DNA of 64,000 bases from Verrucomicrobiota bacterium (GTDB taxonomy: Bacteria > Verrucomicrobiota > Verrucomicrobiia > Limisphaerales > SIBE01): assembly GCA_016871535.1 (NCBI GenBank), contig VHCZ01000003.1, forward strand, positions 18,372 through 82,371, written 5' to 3'. Made by a program: the position numbers and the translations under genes. Positions 7,489 to 51,893 of the stretch are shown in pieces (the stretch's first letter is position 1; the number at the start of each line of letters is the position of its first letter). The notes below the pieces were generated by a model. That model saw only the letters and a program-made list of their open reading frames with translations, ran no database searches and had not been told where the DNA came from.

Positions 7489-7893
7489 TCATTTTGCCCG
7501 ATTTGCCGTATCTTCTGTTGAAGCCGACACCGCTTCGGCGTCCGTGAATACGACAGTTCCGCCTTGGTTTTTGAGCTGAGCAAGGACCTTCCAGTGGTGC
7601 AGGTCTTCGGAAGCTTCGAGCAGGTATTGCTCGCCCGATTGGCTGTCGATCTGGATGGTGGCCGCACCGTTCTCGTCGAGTTCGCTCGCGGTGAGCTTCG
7701 GCGACCGGATTGCCAGGATTCCTTGCGGCGAACCCGTCGAGAAGAGCGCCAGGCCACCCTGTCTCTCCCCCCTCGGCGGAGGAGACGGTGGGGTAGGACG
7801 ATGAGGGGACGTTCGTGGGAGAGAGAACGAGTTCCAGCGCTCGGCGCGAATGATGCGTCGCGGCTGGCCGAAGGTGCGAACAGTGATTAGCAT
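7489..7893 (-). pseudogene. Orphan fragment resembling the C-terminal beta-sandwich domain of large secreted proteins
   Basis: The tail ...IQIDSQSGEQYLLEASEDLHHWKVLAQLKNQGGTVVFTDAEA looks like the terminal domain of big PVC surface proteins. The sequence upstream of it is low-complexity. ATG at 7893; the longer ORF-track version overlaps the DUF1802 gene. Confidence 0.3.
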
Positions 7894-7899
7894 GCAAGC

Positions 7900-8478
7900 A
7901 TGCGTATCGCTTTCAAAGAATGGGCCGTGGTTGTGGACGCCCTCGGATCCGGAGAACAAATCCTGATCTTGCGCAAGGGCGGAATCAAAGAGGGGCGCGG
8001 CGGATTCCAGGTCGAGCATCCGCAGTTCCTGCTTTTCCCGACTTTGTTTCATCAGCAGCGGGAGTCCGTAATCGCGCCTGCCCAGGCGAGGTTCGATCAA
8101 ATCGCACCGGGATTTGCGCGGCCCGACAGGCTCAGGATTGAATTCTTCGCGGAAGTCGCCGCCTGGCAACGGCTGGATTCATTGGCCACGGCCGAGCAGC
8201 TTCGCGGACAGCACATCTGGCGCGATGAAGTGATTCGGCAACGTTTCGATTGGGGGCGGGACAAGACCATCCACGGGCTGGCCGTGCGGGTTCGCCGTTT
8301 GCCGCGAGCCGTCGAACTGCCGATGCTCGCTGGCTACGGCGGATGCAAGTCCTGGGTTGAACTGGCCGAGGACATTTCAATTCAAGGCTCGCCGGTGGTC
8401 CTCAGCGACGATGCATTCGCCGGCAAACTCGAACGATTTCGGGAAACGCTTCAGGCGTCTTCCGTGCTACCGCCGTAG
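7900..8478 (+). CDS. DUF1802 family protein
   Basis: The N-terminus IAFKEWAVVVDALGSGEQILILRKGGIKEGRGGFQVEHPQFLLFPT matches my recollection of DUF1802. Confidence 0.75.
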   Translation: MRIAFKEWAVVVDALGSGEQILILRKGGIKEGRGGFQVEHPQFLLFPTLFHQQRESVIAPAQARFDQIAPGFARPDRLRIEFFAEVAAWQRLDSLATAEQLRGQHIWRDEVIRQRFDWGRDKTIHGLAVRVRRLPRAVELPMLAGYGGCKSWVELAEDISIQGSPVVLSDDAFAGKLERFRETLQASSVLPP

Positions 8479-8530
8479 ATTTTGAAAACCGAGCTAACCT
8501 GTGGCCCAGCCCTGCAATGAAGAAAACCCG

Positions 8531-9865
8531 TCAGAACCGCGGCATCACGCCGCCCATGCGCTTCATCATCTTTTGCAACTTGCCCATCTTCCGCATCATC
8601 TGCTGCATCTGATTGAAGCGATTCAGAAGGTTGTTCAGTTCGGCGACCGTGACGCCGCTGCCTTTGGCGATCCGTTGCCGGCGTCGGGCATTCAGGATTT
8701 GCGGATGCCGGCGTTCCTGCGGCGTCATCGCGCAGATCATGCCTTCCATCCGCCGGAATTCCTTTTCGCTCTTGCTCAAATCGGCGCCCTGAAGCATCTC
8801 CGAGCCGCCGGGCAGCATGCCGACAATGCTTTCGAGGGAACCGAGCTTTCGCATCTGGCGCAACTGATCCAGAAAATCCTCCAGCGTAAACTGGCCTTTC
8901 CGCATCTTTTCTTCCATGCGCTTGGCTTCGTCCAAATCCACAGCCTCGGCCGCGCGTTCCACCAGACTCACGACGTCGCCCATCCCCAAAATCCGCGACG
9001 CCATGCGTTCGGGATGGAACGGCTCGAAGTCCTCGGACTTTTCGCCGACGCCGACGAATTTGATCGGCTTGCCCGTGACCGCTTTCAGGCTCAACGCCGC
9101 ACCGCCGCGCGCGTCGCCATCCAGCCGGGTGAGCACAATGCCGGTGAGCTGCAGCGCGCGGTCAAAATGAGTCGCCACGTTGACGGCTTCCTGTCCGGTC
9201 GCGGCGTCGAGGACGAGCAGGATTTCCTGGGGCTTCACCAGATCGCGCAAGCGAACCAGCTCCCGAACGAGCGGCTCGTCAATCTGGAGGCGGCCCGCCG
9301 TGTCGAAGATGACCGCGTTGCGGTGGTTGGTGCGGGCAAAATCGAGCGCTTCGCGTCCGATCTTCAACACGTCCGTCTCGCCCTTGCGGACAAAGACCGG
9401 CAATTCGAGTTGCCGGCCGAGTGTTTCGAGCTGGTCCATGGCCGCCGGACGATACACGTCGCAGGCGACGAGGAGCGGGCTGCGGCCTTGTTTGTTGAGC
9501 CAGCGCGCCAATTTGCCGGCGGAGGTGGTTTTGCCGGAGCCGTGCAGACCCACAAGCATCACGCAGCCGGGATTCCCGCCCAGTTCGATTTCCGCGTTGG
9601 CTGAGCCAAGCAGGTTCACCAGTTCGTCGTGAATGATTTTGATGATTTGCTGGCCGGGCTGAATGCTCTGGATGACTTTCTGCCCGATGGCTTGTTCCTT
9701 GACCTTTTCGATGAAATCGCGGGCGACCTTGAAATTGACATCGGCATCGAGCAACGCCAGCCGGACGTCGCGAATCGAGTCGCTGATGTTCGACTCCGAA
9801 ATCTTTCCCAGTCCGCGCAGGTTCTTGAAGACATTTTGCAGCTTGCCGCTCAGCGTATCAAACAT
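8531..9865 (-). CDS. ffh: Signal recognition particle protein Ffh
   Basis: NG domain with GLHGSGKTTSAGKLA, DTAGRL and TRLDGDARGG. Met-rich M domain (MQQMMRKMGKLQKMMKRM). Confidence 0.96.
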   Translation of the reverse strand: MFDTLSGKLQNVFKNLRGLGKISESNISDSIRDVRLALLDADVNFKVARDFIEKVKEQAIGQKVIQSIQPGQQIIKIIHDELVNLLGSANAEIELGGNPGCVMLVGLHGSGKTTSAGKLARWLNKQGRSPLLVACDVYRPAAMDQLETLGRQLELPVFVRKGETDVLKIGREALDFARTNHRNAVIFDTAGRLQIDEPLVRELVRLRDLVKPQEILLVLDAATGQEAVNVATHFDRALQLTGIVLTRLDGDARGGAALSLKAVTGKPIKFVGVGEKSEDFEPFHPERMASRILGMGDVVSLVERAAEAVDLDEAKRMEEKMRKGQFTLEDFLDQLRQMRKLGSLESIVGMLPGGSEMLQGADLSKSEKEFRRMEGMICAMTPQERRHPQILNARRRQRIAKGSGVTVAELNNLLNRFNQMQQMMRKMGKLQKMMKRMGGVMPRF

Positions 9866-10030: not shown

Positions 10031-10354
10031 GCAGAGTTCCTCTGAGCTGTCCCGTATCTTGACAGCGGTGTACGGAAATTCACGACGCGCCCAGAGTCGT
10101 TCTTGCACGCACAGGCGGTCGCGATTGCCTAACCCCCTTTGAAACAAGGGGTACTGCCGCTGAGGCCACAGATGATCGGAGTTGGCCCGCCAGTAGCTTC
10201 AAGGCGCCAGAATCTCCGGGCTGTGTCGTACGGAGACTGCCATGACACTGGCAAACCGCGGTCGTTACGCTAATGATGCTGCTCCTGGCCTCGCTGAAAG
10301 AATCCCACAGGCCGCCGTCGGAGTGAATGGTTTCGAAACAAAACGTTTCAGCGG

Positions 10355-10762
10355 TTAGCTCTTGGAATCCTTCTTCTCGTCACCGGACTCCAATTTCTCG
10401 CCGGCTTGTTTCCAACCAGAAATACCTGCAGAGAGATGTTTCACATTGGAATAGCCGAGTTCTTTGGCCGCACGGGCCGCGCTTTGGTAAGCCATTCAGG
10501 TAGGCCCCGTGCAATACGCCACGATCAGGGCGCTCTTGTCTTTGGGCAGAACCTTCGCGAGGTCGTTTCTGTGCGTGGCGAAGTCAATCGCTGTAGGGAT
10601 GCGGCCATTCTTCCATGATTTCGTTCCCATGACGTCAATCACGGTGACTTTCTTGGCTTCGATGGCGGCTTTCAGTTCCTTGATGCTGACATCCGGGAAC
10701 TCGCCCGCCCAGAGGGTGGCGGCGAACGCCAGAGCTGTGACGAGAGTAAGGACTTTTTTCAT
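10355..10762 (-). CDS. Periplasmic single-domain rhodanese with in-frame TGA (candidate selenocysteine; otherwise a nonsense pseudogene)
   Basis: Signal peptide MKKVLTLVTALAFAATLWA. The ORF-track ORF stops at TGA 10496-10498 after ...LIVAYCTGPT. The same frame continues MAYQSAARAAKELGYSNVKHLSAGISGWKQAGEKLESGDEKKDSKS to TAA at 10355-10357, which completes the rhodanese fold. Confidence 0.65.
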
Positions 10763-10896
10763 TGTTGCTTAACGTTTCTGGTTTTGTTGATTCGAACTTG
10801 CCTCCTATAAGACCAAATCTCGGCCAATTGGTTACACAATGATTAAGTTCAGGGAGCCCCTCAGTTAGCGACGGTGGAGGGGATACAAGTTCACGC

Positions 10897-13732: not shown

Positions 13733-14698
13733 TCAATCAAAGGCGTGGCCGGCGCAGCAGAGGACGTTTTTGACTTTGTGCCGGACGAGTTCTTTGACCT
13801 TGTTGCGGGCCGGGTTCAGATATTTGCGCGGATCGAATTCCTTCGGGGATTCGGCGAAGAATTTTCTGAGCGCGGCTGTGAACGCCAGGCGCAAATCGGT
13901 ATCGATGTTCACTTTCGTGCAGCCGACGCGACGGGCGACTTCGATGTCCGCTTCCGGCACGCCCGCAGTATCCTCGCCAAGCTTGCCGCCATAGCGATTG
14001 ATTTCGACCGCCAGCTCTTTCGGGACGCTGGAGGCTCCGTGCAACACAAGCGGGTAATCGCCCAGGCCGGCGTCCATCAACGCCTTTTTGATCGCCTTGA
14101 GCCGTTCCAGGTCGAGGCGTTGCTGGCCTTTGAATTTGTACGCGCCGTGCGAATTGCCGATGGCCACGGCCAGCGAGTTCACGCCGGTCTGCTTGACGAA
14201 TTCCACCGCTTCATCCGGGTGGGTATAGACGCCCCCCTTGGAATACCCGCCGCCTTCCTCGCCGTCGTCGTGTTGGGCGCCCACGAGCATCCCCAGCTCG
14301 CCCTCGACGACGCAGTTGTGCTTGTGCGCGTAGTCCACGACCTTCTTGGACACCTCGGCATTTTTCTCAAACGGGAGGTGGCTGCCGTCGATCATCACGC
14401 TGGTGAAGCCTTCATCGATGCATTCCTTGCACAGCTCGTAGGAGTCGCCGTGGTCAAGATGGACGGCGATGGGGATGGTCGAAAGACTGACGGCGGCTTC
14501 GATGAGTTTCTTGAGATAGACCGGATTGGCGTATTGGCGCGCGCCCTTGGAGATTTGGAGCATGACCGGCGCTTTTTCCTCTTCGCAAGCCTCGACGATG
14601 GCCTGCAACAATTCCATGTTGTTGACGTTGAAGGCGCCGAGGGCGTATTTGCCTTTCAGGGCTTTGGCAAATAAATCTTTGGTATGGGTGAGTGGCAT
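13733..14698 (-). CDS. fba: Class II fructose-1,6-bisphosphate aldolase
   Basis: 321 aa. LGAFNVNNMELLQAIVEA, HLDHGDS, EGELG and HGASSVP motifs. Confidence 0.93.
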   Translation of the reverse strand: MPLTHTKDLFAKALKGKYALGAFNVNNMELLQAIVEACEEEKAPVMLQISKGARQYANPVYLKKLIEAAVSLSTIPIAVHLDHGDSYELCKECIDEGFTSVMIDGSHLPFEKNAEVSKKVVDYAHKHNCVVEGELGMLVGAQHDDGEEGGGYSKGGVYTHPDEAVEFVKQTGVNSLAVAIGNSHGAYKFKGQQRLDLERLKAIKKALMDAGLGDYPLVLHGASSVPKELAVEINRYGGKLGEDTAGVPEADIEVARRVGCTKVNIDTDLRLAFTAALRKFFAESPKEFDPRKYLNPARNKVKELVRHKVKNVLCCAGHAFD

Positions 14699-24317: not shown

Positions 24318-24598
24318 CTTAGAGCGTGTCCGAAAATTGCGCGGGGTCCTGCGGCGAGGGATTTTGGCTGTGGCCAAGGCGGCGAGGTCCGAGCATCCCC
24401 AACGCGGGCTGTAAGGACCGAGCCAACGCAGGCCACGGACAAAAGACCCGCCGCCCGGAGGGTTTTCGCGCCAAAGGCCGCCTGGCTTCGTTGCTCCTCA
24501 GTCGAAGATCCAGGGAGGATATTCTCCTTCGTCGCGCCTCGCCATCCGGCCTTTGGCGCGAAAACAGGACCCCGCGGAATTTTCGGACACGCTCTTAA
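24318..24598. repeat. Family F structured element, copy F1 (281 bp)
   Basis: 34-nt terminal inverted repeat: cttagagcgtgtccgaaaattgcgcggggtcctg versus caggaccccgcggaattttcggacacgctcttaag. The internal core is homologous to 32311-32525. Confidence 0.85.
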
Positions 24599-32281: not shown

Positions 32282-32558
32282 CTAGTGATGTGTCTCACAA
32301 ATGGCTGGAGTTATGCCGCAAGGGATTTTGGCCTCCCGCGAGGCGCGAGCGACGCGCATACCCCTGGTGGGTCTGTAAGGCGCGAGCAACGAAGCGGGAG
32401 GCCAAAAGACCTGCGGCCCGAAGGGTTGCGCCGAAAACGGTCTGGGGCTGCGTTGCTCCTCGGTCGCAGAGCACCGGGGCTATGCTCCCTTGTCGCGCCT
32501 TGCCCCAGGCCGTTTTGGGCGCAACATAACTCCAGCCATTCGTGAGACACATCACTAG
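32282..32558. repeat. Family F structured element, copy F2 (277 bp)
   Basis: Terminal inverted repeat: ctagtgatgtgtctcacaaatggctggagttatg versus cataactccagccattcgtgagacacatcactag. The right end contains the secG stop codon (cta at 32555-32557). Confidence 0.85.
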
Positions 32559-35859: not shown

Positions 35860-36280
35860 TAAGCCGAAGCCTTGGCAAACACCGGCGGGGTGGAAGAGTT
35901 TTGGGAGGTGTTCAGGATTTCGATTTTTGCTGATCTCGGCCTTTTGATGAAGCTGGGGAGCGCGACCGTCTCGGTTGCTGTGTTTGGCGTCGCGCCGCGT
36001 CCTTTTCGACGAAGATGCGAGCCGGATTGAAACGTCGCCGGCTCAACAGCGGTTTGCCGTTTCCGCTGACGCTTGTTTGCCGCAGTTCGGTCGCACAATC
36101 ATGGCGCTGCGTGCTTATGCGCCCCATGAAAGCGCATTTCCCGCGCGGGGCTCTTCAGGGCGCTGAACAATCGGACGCAAGCGGAAAGCTGCTTGGGTGC
36201 GTCCAAAATGCGGAGGCCACAAAGGCCACAAAGGGCATCTTGCGCAACCATCCCGCTCTCGAGTAAAGTTTCTTTCAGCA

Positions 36281-37801
36281 ATGCAGGTGCTTGATTCATC
36301 CCGAAGCCGCATCCTTGAACCTCTCCGTTCCAAGGCGTCCGTCGAGTTTGATGCCGAACGGAAACAGGAGTTGGGGCAATTCTTCACGCCGGAATCTATC
36401 GGGGCTTTCATGGCGTCGTTATTCGAGAAATGCCCGGCCGAAATCCGTCTGCTTGACGCCGGCGCGGGAGACGGTGCACTCATCGCTGCTTTTGTGAAGC
36501 AGTCATGCGGCGGCGGGCGTCCGCCAAAACGAATTGCCGTGACAGCCTACGAGCTTGACGACGCAATCCTTCCGGCTCTTGAGCGGACATTGCGGTTGTG
36601 CCGGACCGAGTGTGAGCAAACCGGAATCGCGTTCACTGCGGACTTGCACCACGAAGATTTCATTGGGGCTGCGGTTACACTCACGCGCCAAGACTTGTTC
36701 GATTCATCCAAGACACCGTTCAACGCGGTCATCCTCAATCCACCCTATCGCAAGATCAACAGCGACTCACACGCGCGACGGCTGCTGCGTGAGACTGGAA
36801 TTGAAACGAGCAACCTCTACACAGGCTTTCTTGCGCTCGCCGCGAAACTTCTGTGCGAAAGCGGCGAGATGGTGGCGATTTGCCCGCGCAGTTTCTGCAA
36901 TGGGCCTTACTTCCGTCCGTTCCGCGAACAGTTCCTTGCGGTGATGTCGCTCCGCCGACTCCACGTTTTCGAATCGCGGTCGGTGGCGTTTCAACATGAT
37001 GACGTGTTGCAGGAGAACATCATCGTTCATGCCGTTAAGTCGCCGAAGAAGCCGGAGTTGGTCGTCATTTCGACGAGCAGCGGCGAGACCGGCGGCAAAA
37101 TGACGGCCCGAACCTGTCCATTCAGCGAGGTTGTTTCGCCGCGCGACCCCGAGCAGTTCATTCACCTTGTCGCTGCCGAGTCAGACGAAGCGGTTCGCCA
37201 GAAGATGCGGAGATTCACGGCTCCGCTCGCGACGCTCGGCTTGGAAGTTTCGACGGGACGCGTCGTAGATTTCCGCGCGAAGCAGTTTCTCGTTCGCGAG
37301 CCTCAGGACGATACCGCGCCGCTGATTTACCCGTGCCACCTTAACGGCGGCTTCGTGCATTGGCCGAAGCCGGGCGGCAAGAAGCCGAACGCCATCCGCG
37401 ATACCGAACGCACGCAGGAACTGCTCGTGCCGGGCGCGATTTACGTCCTGGTGAAACGCTTCACGTCGAAAGAGGAGCGTCGGCGAGTGGTGGCTTGCAT
37501 TTACGACCCACACCGCATCCGCGCAGAGCGTGTCGGCTTTGAAAACCATCTGAACTATTTCCATGCTCGTGGACGCGGGCTGCCGATGGACGTGGCGAAG
37601 GGGCTCGCCGCCTTCCTGAATTCAACGCTGGTTGATGTTTACTTCCGCCAGTTCAATGGTCACACACAGGTCAACGCGACCGACTTGCGGAACATGCGCT
37701 ACCCGACGCGCGCGGAGCTCGAATCGCTTGGCCGCAAAATCGCCGATGCGTTCCCCGACCAGGCCGAGTTGGACGCGCTCGTTGAAAGGGAGCTTGTTTG
37801 A
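36281..37801 (+). CDS. N6-adenine DNA methyltransferase of a BsuBI/PstI-type R-M system
   Basis: ATG at 36281 (MQVLDSS...). GQFFTPESIGAFMASLF, motif I LLDAGAGDGALIAAF, motif IV AVILNPPYRKI. TGATG overlap with the next gene. Confidence 0.85.
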   Translation: MQVLDSSRSRILEPLRSKASVEFDAERKQELGQFFTPESIGAFMASLFEKCPAEIRLLDAGAGDGALIAAFVKQSCGGGRPPKRIAVTAYELDDAILPALERTLRLCRTECEQTGIAFTADLHHEDFIGAAVTLTRQDLFDSSKTPFNAVILNPPYRKINSDSHARRLLRETGIETSNLYTGFLALAAKLLCESGEMVAICPRSFCNGPYFRPFREQFLAVMSLRRLHVFESRSVAFQHDDVLQENIIVHAVKSPKKPELVVISTSSGETGGKMTARTCPFSEVVSPRDPEQFIHLVAAESDEAVRQKMRRFTAPLATLGLEVSTGRVVDFRAKQFLVREPQDDTAPLIYPCHLNGGFVHWPKPGGKKPNAIRDTERTQELLVPGAIYVLVKRFTSKEERRRVVACIYDPHRIRAERVGFENHLNYFHARGRGLPMDVAKGLAAFLNSTLVDVYFRQFNGHTQVNATDLRNMRYPTRAELESLGRKIADAFPDQAELDALVERELV

Positions 37802-38778
37802 TGGCCGCCGCCAATGCCCGCGCGAGCGCCGCAGCGAGGAAGGGAAAGCTGGGCGAAGCGATGGAAATCCTCAAAGCAATCGGCTTCGGTCCGAGACAGA
37901 GCAGCGAAGTCGCGGCCTACACTTTCCTCGCGCTGCTCGACCTTGTCGCGAACGCCCCGTGGAGCGCCGCCTCAAATCCGCTCCGTGGCATCACGCCCAT
38001 CATTGGGTTCATTGCGAAAGCCTACGGTGTCCGATACGCGCCGAACACGCGCGAAACCATTCGCGACGAAGCCGTCAAATACTTCGTCGAAGCGGGATTG
38101 TTGCTGCGCAACCCGGACAATCCGAACCGCCCCACGAACAGCGGCCAAACCGTTTATCAAATCGAACCGACGGCGTTAGCGCTGGTGCGCACGTTTGGAA
38201 CGAAGCCGTGGTCCGCGCAGTTGAAGGAGTATCTGGCGAATCGCGCAAAGATTCGTGAATCTGTCGAGCGCGAGCGCAAGCTGGCGCGCATTCCAGTGAA
38301 GCTTCCTTCTGGCGAAACGGTAACAATCTCGCCGGGCGGCCAGAATCCGCTCATTAAACAAATCATCGAGGAGTTTTGTCCACGCTTCGCGCCGGGCGCG
38401 ACAGTTGTTTACATCGGCGACGCCGAGAGCAAGTTTCTGCATCTGGAAGCAGCCTACCTCGAAGGCTTGAGGGGTGTGATTGCGGCGTCGGCGAAAATGC
38501 CCGATGTCGTGGTGCATGACACGAAGCGCAACTGGTTGCTGTTGGTTGAAGCTGTCACGAGCGCTGGGGCGGTGGATTGGAAGCGTCGGAATGAACTCAA
38601 AGACCTTTTCAAAAGCTGCAAGGCCGGCCTGGTGTTCGTTACCGCGTTCGAGACGCGGCGCGCGATGCAGAGTTTTCTGCCGCTGATTTCCTGGGAGACA
38701 GAAGTTTGGGTTGCTGAAGCTCCGGATCATTTGATTCACTTCGACGGGGAACGGTTTCTCGGCCCTTATCCAGATTGA
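37801..38778 (+). CDS. BsuBI/PstI family type II restriction endonuclease
   Basis: LGEAMEILKAIGFGPRQSSEVAAYTFLALLDL plus YAPNTRETIRDEAVKYFVEAGLLLRNPDNPNRPTNSGQTVYQI match my recollection of this family. Size about 325 aa. Confidence 0.8.
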   Translation: MAAANARASAAARKGKLGEAMEILKAIGFGPRQSSEVAAYTFLALLDLVANAPWSAASNPLRGITPIIGFIAKAYGVRYAPNTRETIRDEAVKYFVEAGLLLRNPDNPNRPTNSGQTVYQIEPTALALVRTFGTKPWSAQLKEYLANRAKIRESVERERKLARIPVKLPSGETVTISPGGQNPLIKQIIEEFCPRFAPGATVVYIGDAESKFLHLEAAYLEGLRGVIAASAKMPDVVVHDTKRNWLLLVEAVTSAGAVDWKRRNELKDLFKSCKAGLVFVTAFETRRAMQSFLPLISWETEVWVAEAPDHLIHFDGERFLGPYPD

Positions 38779-51044: not shown

Positions 51045-51611
51045 TCAGGATGCGCTGGGCTCCAAGCGAAGCTGGAACTCAAAAACAATCGCCACGGAAC
51101 AGTCCGCGGTGTTCAGGACTTTTTCGGGCATTTCGGCGATCCGTGTCGAGTTGTCGATCAGCGTGCGCAGTTCCAAGCCGAGGAAGCGGGGTGTGGGGCC
51201 AGACGCGGGTTGAACTTTCATTGGCTCGAAAATACTGCGCGCGCGCTGGGCATGTTGTTTGACTCCGCCGGCCCGCCCCTCGCGGGCTTTCACGCCTGCG
51301 GCCGCCAGCGCGATCAGTCCTTTGAGAAATTCCGCCACCGGCCCTCGCCGGCCCGAGGCGTGCCAGAGACTTTCCCAGGCTTCGTGCGCTTCCCAGTAAT
51401 AGCCGTGATTGAAAAGATCGATTCCCCGGACATACGGCCGGCATTCGCGCCAATGATCCGGATCGAGTGGCGCAGGGGATGCATGAGGTTTGTCGCTACC
51501 GCGGTGCGCGGCGTTGCGCGTCGGATGCGGCGATTTGCCCGGAACATACGCATAGGCAGGAAATGGCTCCTCGGGAACCAGGCGCGGAATGGGATGGCCC
51601 GGGTCGGGCAC
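51045..51611 (-). CDS. DUF309 domain protein
   Basis: GIDLFNHGYYWEAHEAWESLW is the DUF309 signature. Start is uncertain: GTG at 51611 or TTG at 51638. The ORF-track start at 51803 reads through repeats. Confidence 0.7.
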   Translation of the reverse strand: MPDPGHPIPRLVPEEPFPAYAYVPGKSPHPTRNAAHRGSDKPHASPAPLDPDHWRECRPYVRGIDLFNHGYYWEAHEAWESLWHASGRRGPVAEFLKGLIALAAAGVKAREGRAGGVKQHAQRARSIFEPMKVQPASGPTPRFLGLELRTLIDNSTRIAEMPEKVLNTADCSVAIVFEFQLRLEPSAS

Positions 51612-51638
51612 GGATTCAACGTTTCTTGGTGTCTTCAA

Positions 51639-51725
51639 GTTCAGCGTTCGATGTTCGGCGTTCGATGTTCGATGTTGAGATTCCAAACTTTGAACATCCA
51701 ACCTCGAACGCCGAACGTCGAACCA
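51639..51725. repeat. Inverted pair of 7-nt-period arrays (GTTCGAT type)
   Basis: gttcagc gttcgat gttcggc gttcgat gttcgat gttgaga / ttccaaactt / tgaacat ccaacct cgaacgc cgaacgt cgaacca. Confidence 0.85.
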
Positions 51726-51760
51726 ACCATCTTTACCCCTGGCATTCCATGACGAAGAGG

Positions 51761-51893
51761 CAGGGCGAGCCTGTCTCAGCGAGCCGAGTCGGACGTGTTC
51801 CACGCACGTCGAGCGGCTCGCCGGGACGGACTCGCCCTACCTGGTTCATGAGCCGTGTGCATGGCCCCGTGACCAAGCCGGATTTCCATGAAG
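51761..51893. repeat. Family B core B6 plus flank
   Basis: cagggcgagcctgtctcagcgagccg..gagcggctcgccgggacggactcgccctac, then ctggttcatgagccgtgtgcatggcc...gatttccatgaag. Confidence 0.85.

Follow-up and report, generated by a model that had tools for sequence, protein, structure and literature searches.

Bacterial proteins of the rhodanese type that carry selenocysteine (Sec, U) have been catalogued in five forms, which are described by the motifs UxxS, UxxG, CxU, UxxG and UxxxxU, respectively (2026 review PMC13188914; PMC1088965, PMC1976440). The third of these, CxU, corresponds to the family NF041203 (rhodanese_LYCAU), of which a UxU variant exists, and the fifth, UxxxxU, to TsoB (NF045694); several sulfurtransferase families had also been listed as selenoproteins in earlier metagenome surveys. 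The gene considered here lies on the minus strand (10762..10355) of a 64,000-nucleotide stretch of DNA from a Verrucomicrobiota bacterium (GenBank assembly GCA_016871535.1, contig VHCZ01000003.1, positions 18,372 to 82,371), and this whole stretch is referred to below as the window. It encodes a single-domain rhodanese interrupted by an in-frame TGA at codon 89, and is very probably a genuine selenoprotein gene in which UGA89 is decoded as Sec. An initial annotation of the window had made the same proposal, which is supported by a Cys/UGA pair, by retention of the UGA in six lineages, by the selection acting downstream of it and by a clade-specific hairpin; its statement that rhodanese-related selenoproteins had been reported from bacteria agrees with the catalogue above, in which they are an established class that includes the UxxxxU form (PMC13188914).

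How does this locus compare with the systems that have been described? As in the catalogued Sec-rhodaneses, the protein has the PF00581 fold, the proposed Sec falls in the active-site loop, homologues with Cys exist, and a hairpin resembling a selenocysteine insertion sequence (SECIS) follows just past the UGA. The motif is different, however, as here it is C-x4-U, in which the catalytic Cys is retained and Sec would take the sixth position of the loop only, whereas forms two and four (UxxG) appear from their motifs to replace the catalytic Cys itself and form three is C-x-U. The second U of the UxxxxU motif of TsoB is spaced as Cys84 and Sec89 are, a likely positional equivalence that is read from the motifs and not from an alignment, but TsoB is a rhodanese/DsbD fusion of 572 positions with two Sec, as against 135 amino acids and one UGA here. 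Neither family model accepts the read-through protein, which scores 47.9 bits against a cut-off of 115 for NF041203 (the motif here being AYCTGPTU) and 48.1 bits against a cut-off of 805 for NF045694, where only profile positions 78-162 of 572 are covered. The C-x4-U motif is thus absent from those listed for Sec-rhodaneses and, because the field treats the same domain with a different Sec site as a different subfamily, it would be a further form on the motif descriptions, though less surely so with respect to form one (UxxS).

Among proteins of known structure, the nearest are BH2092 (which has the same YCxGPxC loop), a Francisella rhodanese-like protein, Alr3790, YgaP and GlpE. BH2092 of Bacillus halodurans (PDB 3nhv, 3o3w; loop YCWGPAC), an uncharacterised protein, is the best match both in sequence (E 1e-9) and in fold (E 4e-8), and is a more distant relative than the Cys-type homologues from Verrucomicrobiota, at 26-30% identity in the fold alignment. 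The E. coli proteins GlpE, PspE and YgaP share the fold (Foldseek matches 1gmx, 5hbl and 2mrm) and have their catalytic Cys at the same loop position, but they have a single Cys in a loop of the C-x5-[R/S/T] type and no second redox residue; similarity to the GlpE model NF001195 is low (20.4 bits against a cut-off of 102). Classical rhodaneses normally have Arg, Ser or Thr at the sixth position of the loop.

The initial annotation had recognised that an 88-residue open reading frame (ORF; 10762..10496, with its ATG at 10762) ends ...ALIVAYCTGPT-TGA and that the same frame then reads MAYQSAARAAKELGYSNVKHLSAGISGWKQAGEKLESGDEKKDSKS-TAA, and its coordinates for the ORF, TGA, TAA and hairpin are all correct. 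It took the stretch past the TGA to be the missing C-terminal half of a rhodanese, as is borne out by the 135-residue read-through product (SALIVAYCTGPT-U-MAYQSAAR across codon 89), which matches the Pfam Rhodanese profile PF00581 over positions 2-102 of 102 (E 1.6e-15; 57.8 bits against a cut-off of 22.2). Because this full-profile match needs the read-through product, and the 88-residue piece by itself gives only a weak rhodanese match, the domain is complete only when the TGA is decoded. An open stretch of 46 codons is not rare by itself at the base composition of the window (P ~0.22), and the evidence is therefore the completeness of the domain together with comparative data. In every public assembly examined the gene has been cut into an 88-residue "rhodanese (weak)" and an orphan 46-residue ORF, and the read-through product itself has no entry in the database of 5.8 billion proteins that was searched.

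The search of that database returned 1105 homologues, of which the best 120 are 126-135 residues long and 64-81% identical, the named members among them being assigned to Verrucomicrobiota or Chthoniobacter. The column occupied by the TGA is Cys in all 167 full-length homologues collected from the protein searches, the loop reading Y-C-G-G-P-x-C, and both Cys84 and Cys89 are invariant columns of the alignment. A scan of GTDB with one genome per species gave 566 relatives; codon 89 was readable in 79 of the best 80, and is TGC in 72, TGT in five and TGA in two, such that 77 of the 79 specify Cys. The in-frame UGA is therefore aligned with Cys in its homologues, as expected of a Sec/Cys pair, and the YC-x-G-P-x-C loop that the initial annotation had named, with the TGA on its second Cys, is confirmed by both collections. 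These Cys-type rhodaneses of Verrucomicrobiota (P0001-P0120 from the protein search, to which the identities above apply, and L069-L146 from GTDB) resemble the window protein in length, signal peptide, loop and C-terminal helix, and differ in having TGC or TGT at the column, in having GG at loop positions 85-86 (162 of 167, as against TG or SS in the TGA clade) and in lacking the GGCC-CGUGC-GGCC hairpin described below. Met90 is present in 64 of the 167 and the nearest Cys forms read C-M-A-Y. No Cys version of the TGA clade was found in the protein database, where the best full-length matches are at most 81% identical.

Two proteins from metagenome contigs, P0150 and P0163, are frameshifted copies of Cys-type family members, whose sequence departs right after YCGGPG or YCG. 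Each is a singleton that reflects either real breakage of the gene or misassembly, in contrast to the TGA clade, which is conserved.

The TGA is not confined to a single assembly. Gene calls on 22 contigs, which come from independent JGI metagenomes and SRA runs, give exactly this 88-residue product, and in the ten contigs whose sequence was read the 408 nt match the window at 100% identity. More diverged carriers came from three sources. A degenerate DNA scan of a metagenome collection with the pattern Y-C-x-G-P-x-TGA-x-A-Y gave 56 loci, three of them true relatives (L021, L041 and L065, the last two being the same); the GTDB scan added L067, from a groundwater metagenome-assembled genome (MAG) with the loop CSSPT-TGA, and L068, from a Lake Tanganyika MAG and identical to L041; and L147 and L148-L150 came from a protein search in which the 88-residue fragment was the query. 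The MAGs VHDE01 (isolate K_Offshore_80m_m1_157) and JACQWK01 (NC_groundwater_1487) are among the carriers. There are thus six distinct TGA lineages (the window; L021; L041 = L065 = L068; L067; L147; L148-L150), the other five having 46 to 92 differences from the window in 408 nt, and all six have the TGA at codon 89, the same terminal TAA and no other stop or frameshift, with the coding sequence conserved on both sides of the UGA. Synonymous divergence (dS) among them is 0.44-1.5, and the ratio of non-synonymous to synonymous divergence (dN/dS, Nei-Gojobori) is 0.044-0.114 over codons 90-135, downstream of the TGA, and 0.085-0.154 over codons 1-88, upstream of it. On these comparisons the region 3' of the TGA is translated and has long been under purifying selection as strong as that acting upstream. 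A neighbour-joining tree for which the Sec/Cys column was masked groups the six TGA forms as one clade in all of 200 bootstraps and places this clade within the Cys forms, a topology that indicates a single origin of the TGA clade.

A seventh, independent TGA at the same Cys column is found in L151 (positions 623-625; ENA ERZ27284379, contig k139_882112), in a gene of the CGGPT type that falls next to P0006 and P0010 within the Cys forms. This TGA is seen on a single contig, is without the GGCC-CGUGC-GGCC hairpin and has an open downstream frame. It may have arisen by a recent nonsense mutation or through misassembly, or may represent a Cys-to-Sec conversion that is still very young. It is a contrast case that shows what a plain nonsense mutation or error looks like.

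A candidate recoding signal follows the UGA. The hairpin GGCC-CGUGC-GGCC begins 17 nt after the UGA, and its loop 21 nt after. It lies within a 17-mer, GCGGCCCGTGCGGCCAA, that is identical in all six lineages and encodes Ala-Ala-Arg-Ala-Ala-Lys. The conservation is at the level of nucleotides: among 44 four-fold-degenerate codons at which the amino acid is conserved, the third base is invariant in ten, and five of these ten stand in a row, in codons 95-99, of which the hairpin is made, whereas only five of the other 39 are invariant. Given ten invariant sites among 44, the probability is 2.3e-4 for this exact block and 0.008 for any run of five. Every one of the 19 TGA-clade loci has the 13-mer GGCCCGTGCGGCC, which is absent from all Cys-form loci and from L151, and where the hairpin was searched for elsewhere it was found in rhodanese genes only.

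The RNAalifold consensus fold (-13.7 kcal/mol) places this hairpin on a lower stem that begins right after the UGA, where AUGGCY pairs with RGGYUAU, with an internal loop between the two; 98% of cells in the candidate pairing are paired, as against 15-45% in slid-partner controls. The constraints on bacterial SECIS (bSECIS) elements in the bSECISearch model are an apical loop of 3-9 nt, an upper stem of 4-16 bp, a G at one of the first two loop positions, usually with G or U as the next base, a UGA-to-loop distance of 16-37 nt and a minimum free energy (MFE) of -7.5 kcal/mol or lower (quoted in PMC13188914). The candidate falls within these limits, with a loop of 5 nt (C-G-U-G-C), a stem of 4 bp, a spacing of 21 nt and a single-sequence MFE of -9.7 to -17.3 kcal/mol. 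It thereby resembles the bSECIS consensus, of which the SECIS of E. coli fdhF is the archetype, in forming a stem-loop inside the coding region directly after the UGA, with a small apical loop in which G is followed by U, and in its spacing and total energy; it is unlike the consensus in that its upper stem is at the 4-bp minimum, the hairpin alone is weaker than -7.5 kcal/mol and it has no covariation support. The lower stem is formed by the codons for Met90-Ala91 (10490-10495) and Gly103-Tyr104 (10451-10456), residues that are invariant across the family. Because these codons encode family-conserved residues, Cys forms with Met90 (L069, for instance) can already form the lower stem, and this ready-made stem may have been a pre-adaptation that eased the switch from Cys to Sec.

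A number of observations weigh against decoding as Sec. Changes in the stems are one-sided only (G-C to G-U, U-G to C-G), with no compensatory pair, and covariation support is unobtainable because the hairpin never varies; the candidate structure is compatible with the data but unproven by covariation. The 76 nt that follow the UGA do not fold better than shuffled sequences (MFE z = +1.0), nor are the TGA forms more stable than Cys-form orthologues over the same stretch. As fold stability does not discriminate, silent-site conservation is relied upon instead. The upper stem is the shortest that the model allows and the hairpin alone amounts to -5.7 to -6.9 kcal/mol. The opinion of the initial annotation that the SECIS is weak by eye is upheld in its thermodynamics, while the candidate is strengthened by a hairpin that is invariant in its nucleotides, exclusive to the TGA clade and in agreement with the bSECIS constraints. 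The machinery is likewise missing from the DNA at hand: Pfam annotation of 40 ORFs in the window gave no SelA, SelB or SelD, the window holds no tRNA and no Rfam family, and no tRNA was found in ten loci of TGA-carrying organisms. This negative covers 64 kb and short loci only, and the Sec trait is therefore putative for the organism; within Verrucomicrobia, three genomes were identified as Sec users in a 2016 survey. A scan of the window for in-frame extensions past TGA revealed no second selenoprotein gene, and the case as a whole is built on sequence.

Could the UGA be read without Sec? A near-cognate tRNA (for Trp, Cys or Arg) might leak through it, perhaps stimulated by the hairpin, or a variant tRNA might insert Cys in a SelB-like, SECIS-dependent manner; tRNAs that recode UGA as Cys are known. 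The data speak for downstream translation and for a conserved RNA element and do not identify the inserted residue, and the Sec machinery is missing from the DNA examined, all of which would suit such an explanation. Yet Cys is invariable at this column across 244 homologues (167 proteins and 77 GTDB loci) and, because of that invariance, only Sec or Cys would be chemically acceptable at position 89. A leak of ~1% or less would be a poor supply of an enzyme whose gene is under strong selection, the hairpin fits the SECIS model in both position and loop sequence, and a single TGA-to-TGY change would restore Cys but is seen in no member of the clade. Read-through without Sec is for these reasons considered unlikely.

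A second explanation is that the TGA is a nonsense mutation of TGC or TGT that has truncated a Cys-type rhodanese and left a pseudogene. A single base change would be enough and broken copies do occur in the family, as the TGA of L151 and the frameshifts of P0150 and P0163 illustrate. Against this, the TGA has been kept to a dS of 1.5 with the same TAA and no further lesion, the downstream part has a dN/dS of 0.04-0.11, the upstream part is not relaxed either, and no overlapping gene in another frame that could explain the downstream conservation is seen in the ORF map. The simple TGY-to-TGA mutation that the initial annotation held out as its alternative is excluded, because the TGA persists in six diverged lineages whose downstream 46 codons are under the same purifying selection, and a pseudogene is accordingly very improbable.

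The gene might also be split: ribosomes would terminate at the TGA and reinitiate at the ATG next to it (TGA-ATG), and the 88- and 46-residue pieces would reassemble into a rhodanese. In all six lineages the codon after the TGA is ATG, gene callers do call the 46-residue ORF, and such a split would explain selection on both parts. Met90 is ancestral, however, being found in the closest Cys forms and in 64 of the 167 homologues, and was therefore not created for a restart. Moreover, the signal peptide is on the N-terminal piece only and, judging from sequence, the two products would be separated into different compartments; the break would fall inside the active-site loop; and both the frozen silent sites 17-32 nt downstream and the position of the break, always at the Cys column, would be left unexplained. 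The chances of a split gene are accordingly slight. Lastly, a sequencing or assembly error, or reassignment of UGA to a sense codon, is rejected as having next to no probability since, even though metagenome assemblies do contain errors and UGA-to-Trp is known in two Verrucomicrobiota endosymbionts of ciliates (PMC13462651), the identical TGA stands in 22 contigs for which both samples and assemblers were independent, five other lineages have it too, those endosymbionts have AT-rich, tiny genomes (0.16 Mb) as against a window of 59.6% GC, and the genetic code is standard here, because ordinary genes of the window end more often in TGA than in any other stop (21 of its 42 larger ORFs, including ffh and ilvC).

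With UGA89 read as Sec, what would the protein do? Its N-terminus looks like a cleavable Sec-type signal peptide (Sec here denoting the export route), after which the motif AGE[FY]PD is conserved in the family. The AlphaFold (AF2) model of the closest Cys orthologue, P0001, has a mean predicted local distance difference test (pLDDT) score of 83, with most blocks above 90 and residues 1-20 below 50, and places a loop (84-91) between a strand (79-83) and a helix (92-101). The loop thus begins with a Cys between the central beta-strand and an alpha-helix, as is the rule for the catalytic Cys of rhodaneses, and on the alignment Cys84 is the canonical persulfide-forming residue. The ribosome would arrive at UGA89, where the hairpin (10478..10466), 17 nt downstream and atop the lower stem, would recruit SelB with Sec-tRNA(Sec); Sec would be inserted and translation would run on to the TAA (10357..10355). 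The signal peptide would then be cleaved, and the mature protein would act outside the cytoplasm with the loop Cys84-Thr-Gly-Pro-Thr-Sec89; the PspE protein of E. coli is likewise periplasmic. Cys84 would carry the persulfide while Sec89 takes the place of the second, invariant Cys of the C-x4-C loop, where it would most likely be a resolving or relay residue that either forms a selenenylsulfide with Cys84 or attacks the Cys84 persulfide.

A wider reading can be put forward tentatively, as a possibility with rather less than an even chance of being right. It holds that the TGA clade would add a sixth form to the five catalogued Sec-rhodaneses, one in which the catalytic Cys is kept, the second loop Cys is replaced by Sec and the two form a periplasmic Cys-S-Se-Sec (selenenylsulfide) relay; that the clade captures the build-up of a Cys-to-Sec conversion; and that its 13-nt, 4-bp hairpin, if it works as a SECIS, would be among the smallest natural ones. 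Under this sixth-form reading, the SelB-binding hairpin would have needed little beyond the fixing of Ala and Arg codons (AAKAA to AARAA), and the loop residues GG would have changed to TG or SS after the hairpin had been gained.

Table 1. Positions of the rhodanese gene and its associated elements in the window.
Feature	Position	Strand	Remarks
Rhodanese coding sequence including read-through	10355..10762	minus	135 codons plus TAA; UGA is codon 89; single-domain rhodanese; PF00581 match
Predicted Sec-type signal peptide MKKVLTLVTALAFAATLWA	10706..10762	minus	read from sequence: KK n-region, hydrophobic core, L-W-A then G; cleavage before GEFPD
Cys84 codon TGC, canonical rhodanese catalytic Cys	10511..10513	minus	start of loop C84-T-G-P-T-U89; invariant column
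In-frame UGA, codon 89, proposed Sec codon	10496..10498	minus	aligned with invariant Cys89; kept in six diverged lineages
Candidate bacterial SECIS	10449..10497	minus	lower stem 10490-10495 with 10451-10456, extendable to 10497/10449; internal loop; upper hairpin
Invariant 17-mer GCGGCCCGTGCGGCCAA	10464..10480	minus	codons 95-99 and first two bases of codon 100
Upper hairpin GGCC-CGUGC-GGCC	10466..10478	minus	4-bp stem, 5-nt loop, G-U at loop positions 2-3
TAA, true stop	10355..10357	minus	position common to all TGA lineages
Sole block homologous to other TGA-lineage loci	10341..10805	minus	blastn; gene with ~43 nt upstream and ~14 nt downstream; flanks unrelated

The window and the other TGA-lineage loci are homologous only over the gene and its immediate edges (Table 1). 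The neighbours of the gene are adh_short and ffh in the window, a 415-residue protein and prepilin-type N_methyl proteins in L021, L067, L147 and L148, and other genes again in L041, and neither ffh nor adh_short adjoins the gene at any other TGA-lineage locus. As the neighbours differ between lineages, gene context gives no clue to function; the arrangement suggests that this small gene has been relocated repeatedly or sits at sites prone to rearrangement. Elsewhere the window carries ordinary chromosomal genes, including ffh, ilvC, ilvN, tpiA, secG, glnD, queG, cdsA and an oligopeptide ABC transporter, among others.

Some further features of the window were observed. The only candidate for a TGA extension, a DUF309 gene at 51045-51803, was rejected as its extension is of low complexity and not protein-like. 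A type II restriction-modification pair lies at 36197-38778 on the plus strand, in which an Eco57I/N6_Mtase-type methylase (36197-37801) is followed, with a 4-nt overlap, by an endonuclease of the BsuBI/PstI family (37798-38778). At 7489-8478 the map of longest ORFs has a 226-residue ORF (7489-8169, minus), where public calls have a 134-residue gene (7489-7893, minus) and a DUF1802 gene (7900-8478, plus); long spurious antisense ORFs arise in the GC-rich DNA of the window, a second example being 8501-9604 (plus), opposite ffh. At 24321-24595 there is a non-coding element of ~275 nt that is bounded by perfect terminal inverted repeats of 18 nt (AGAGCGTGTCCGAAAATT ... AATTTTCGGACACGCTCT) and has an extremely stable, branched fold (MFE -177 kcal/mol; z = -13.3 on the plus strand and -10.6 on the minus strand). 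A second, diverged copy lies at ~32315-32525 in minus orientation, and the L021 contig, which is from another species, has copies at 1844-2124 and 13956-14171; the element is 88% conserved there with unrelated flanks, while the diverged second copies share core motifs. The ORFs that overlie it translate to nonsense and no Rfam family matches it, and it looks like either a repeat resembling a miniature inverted-repeat transposable element (MITE) or a structured RNA.

What does the gene mean for this family of proteins and for the organisms that carry it? On the reading that UGA89 is decoded as Sec, existing gene calls misrepresent a real protein of freshwater and groundwater Verrucomicrobiota, and the phylum, in which Sec decoding has hardly been studied, would gain a compact and comparatively well-defined candidate SECIS. 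The locus would also represent a natural Cys/Sec pair at a non-catalytic position of the C-x4-C rhodanese loop, within a large subfamily that counts 566 relatives among the genomes of GTDB species. The occurrence of Sec at the second position of the loop would argue for a redox-active rather than a structural residue there, for which Sec89Cys swaps would provide a direct handle.

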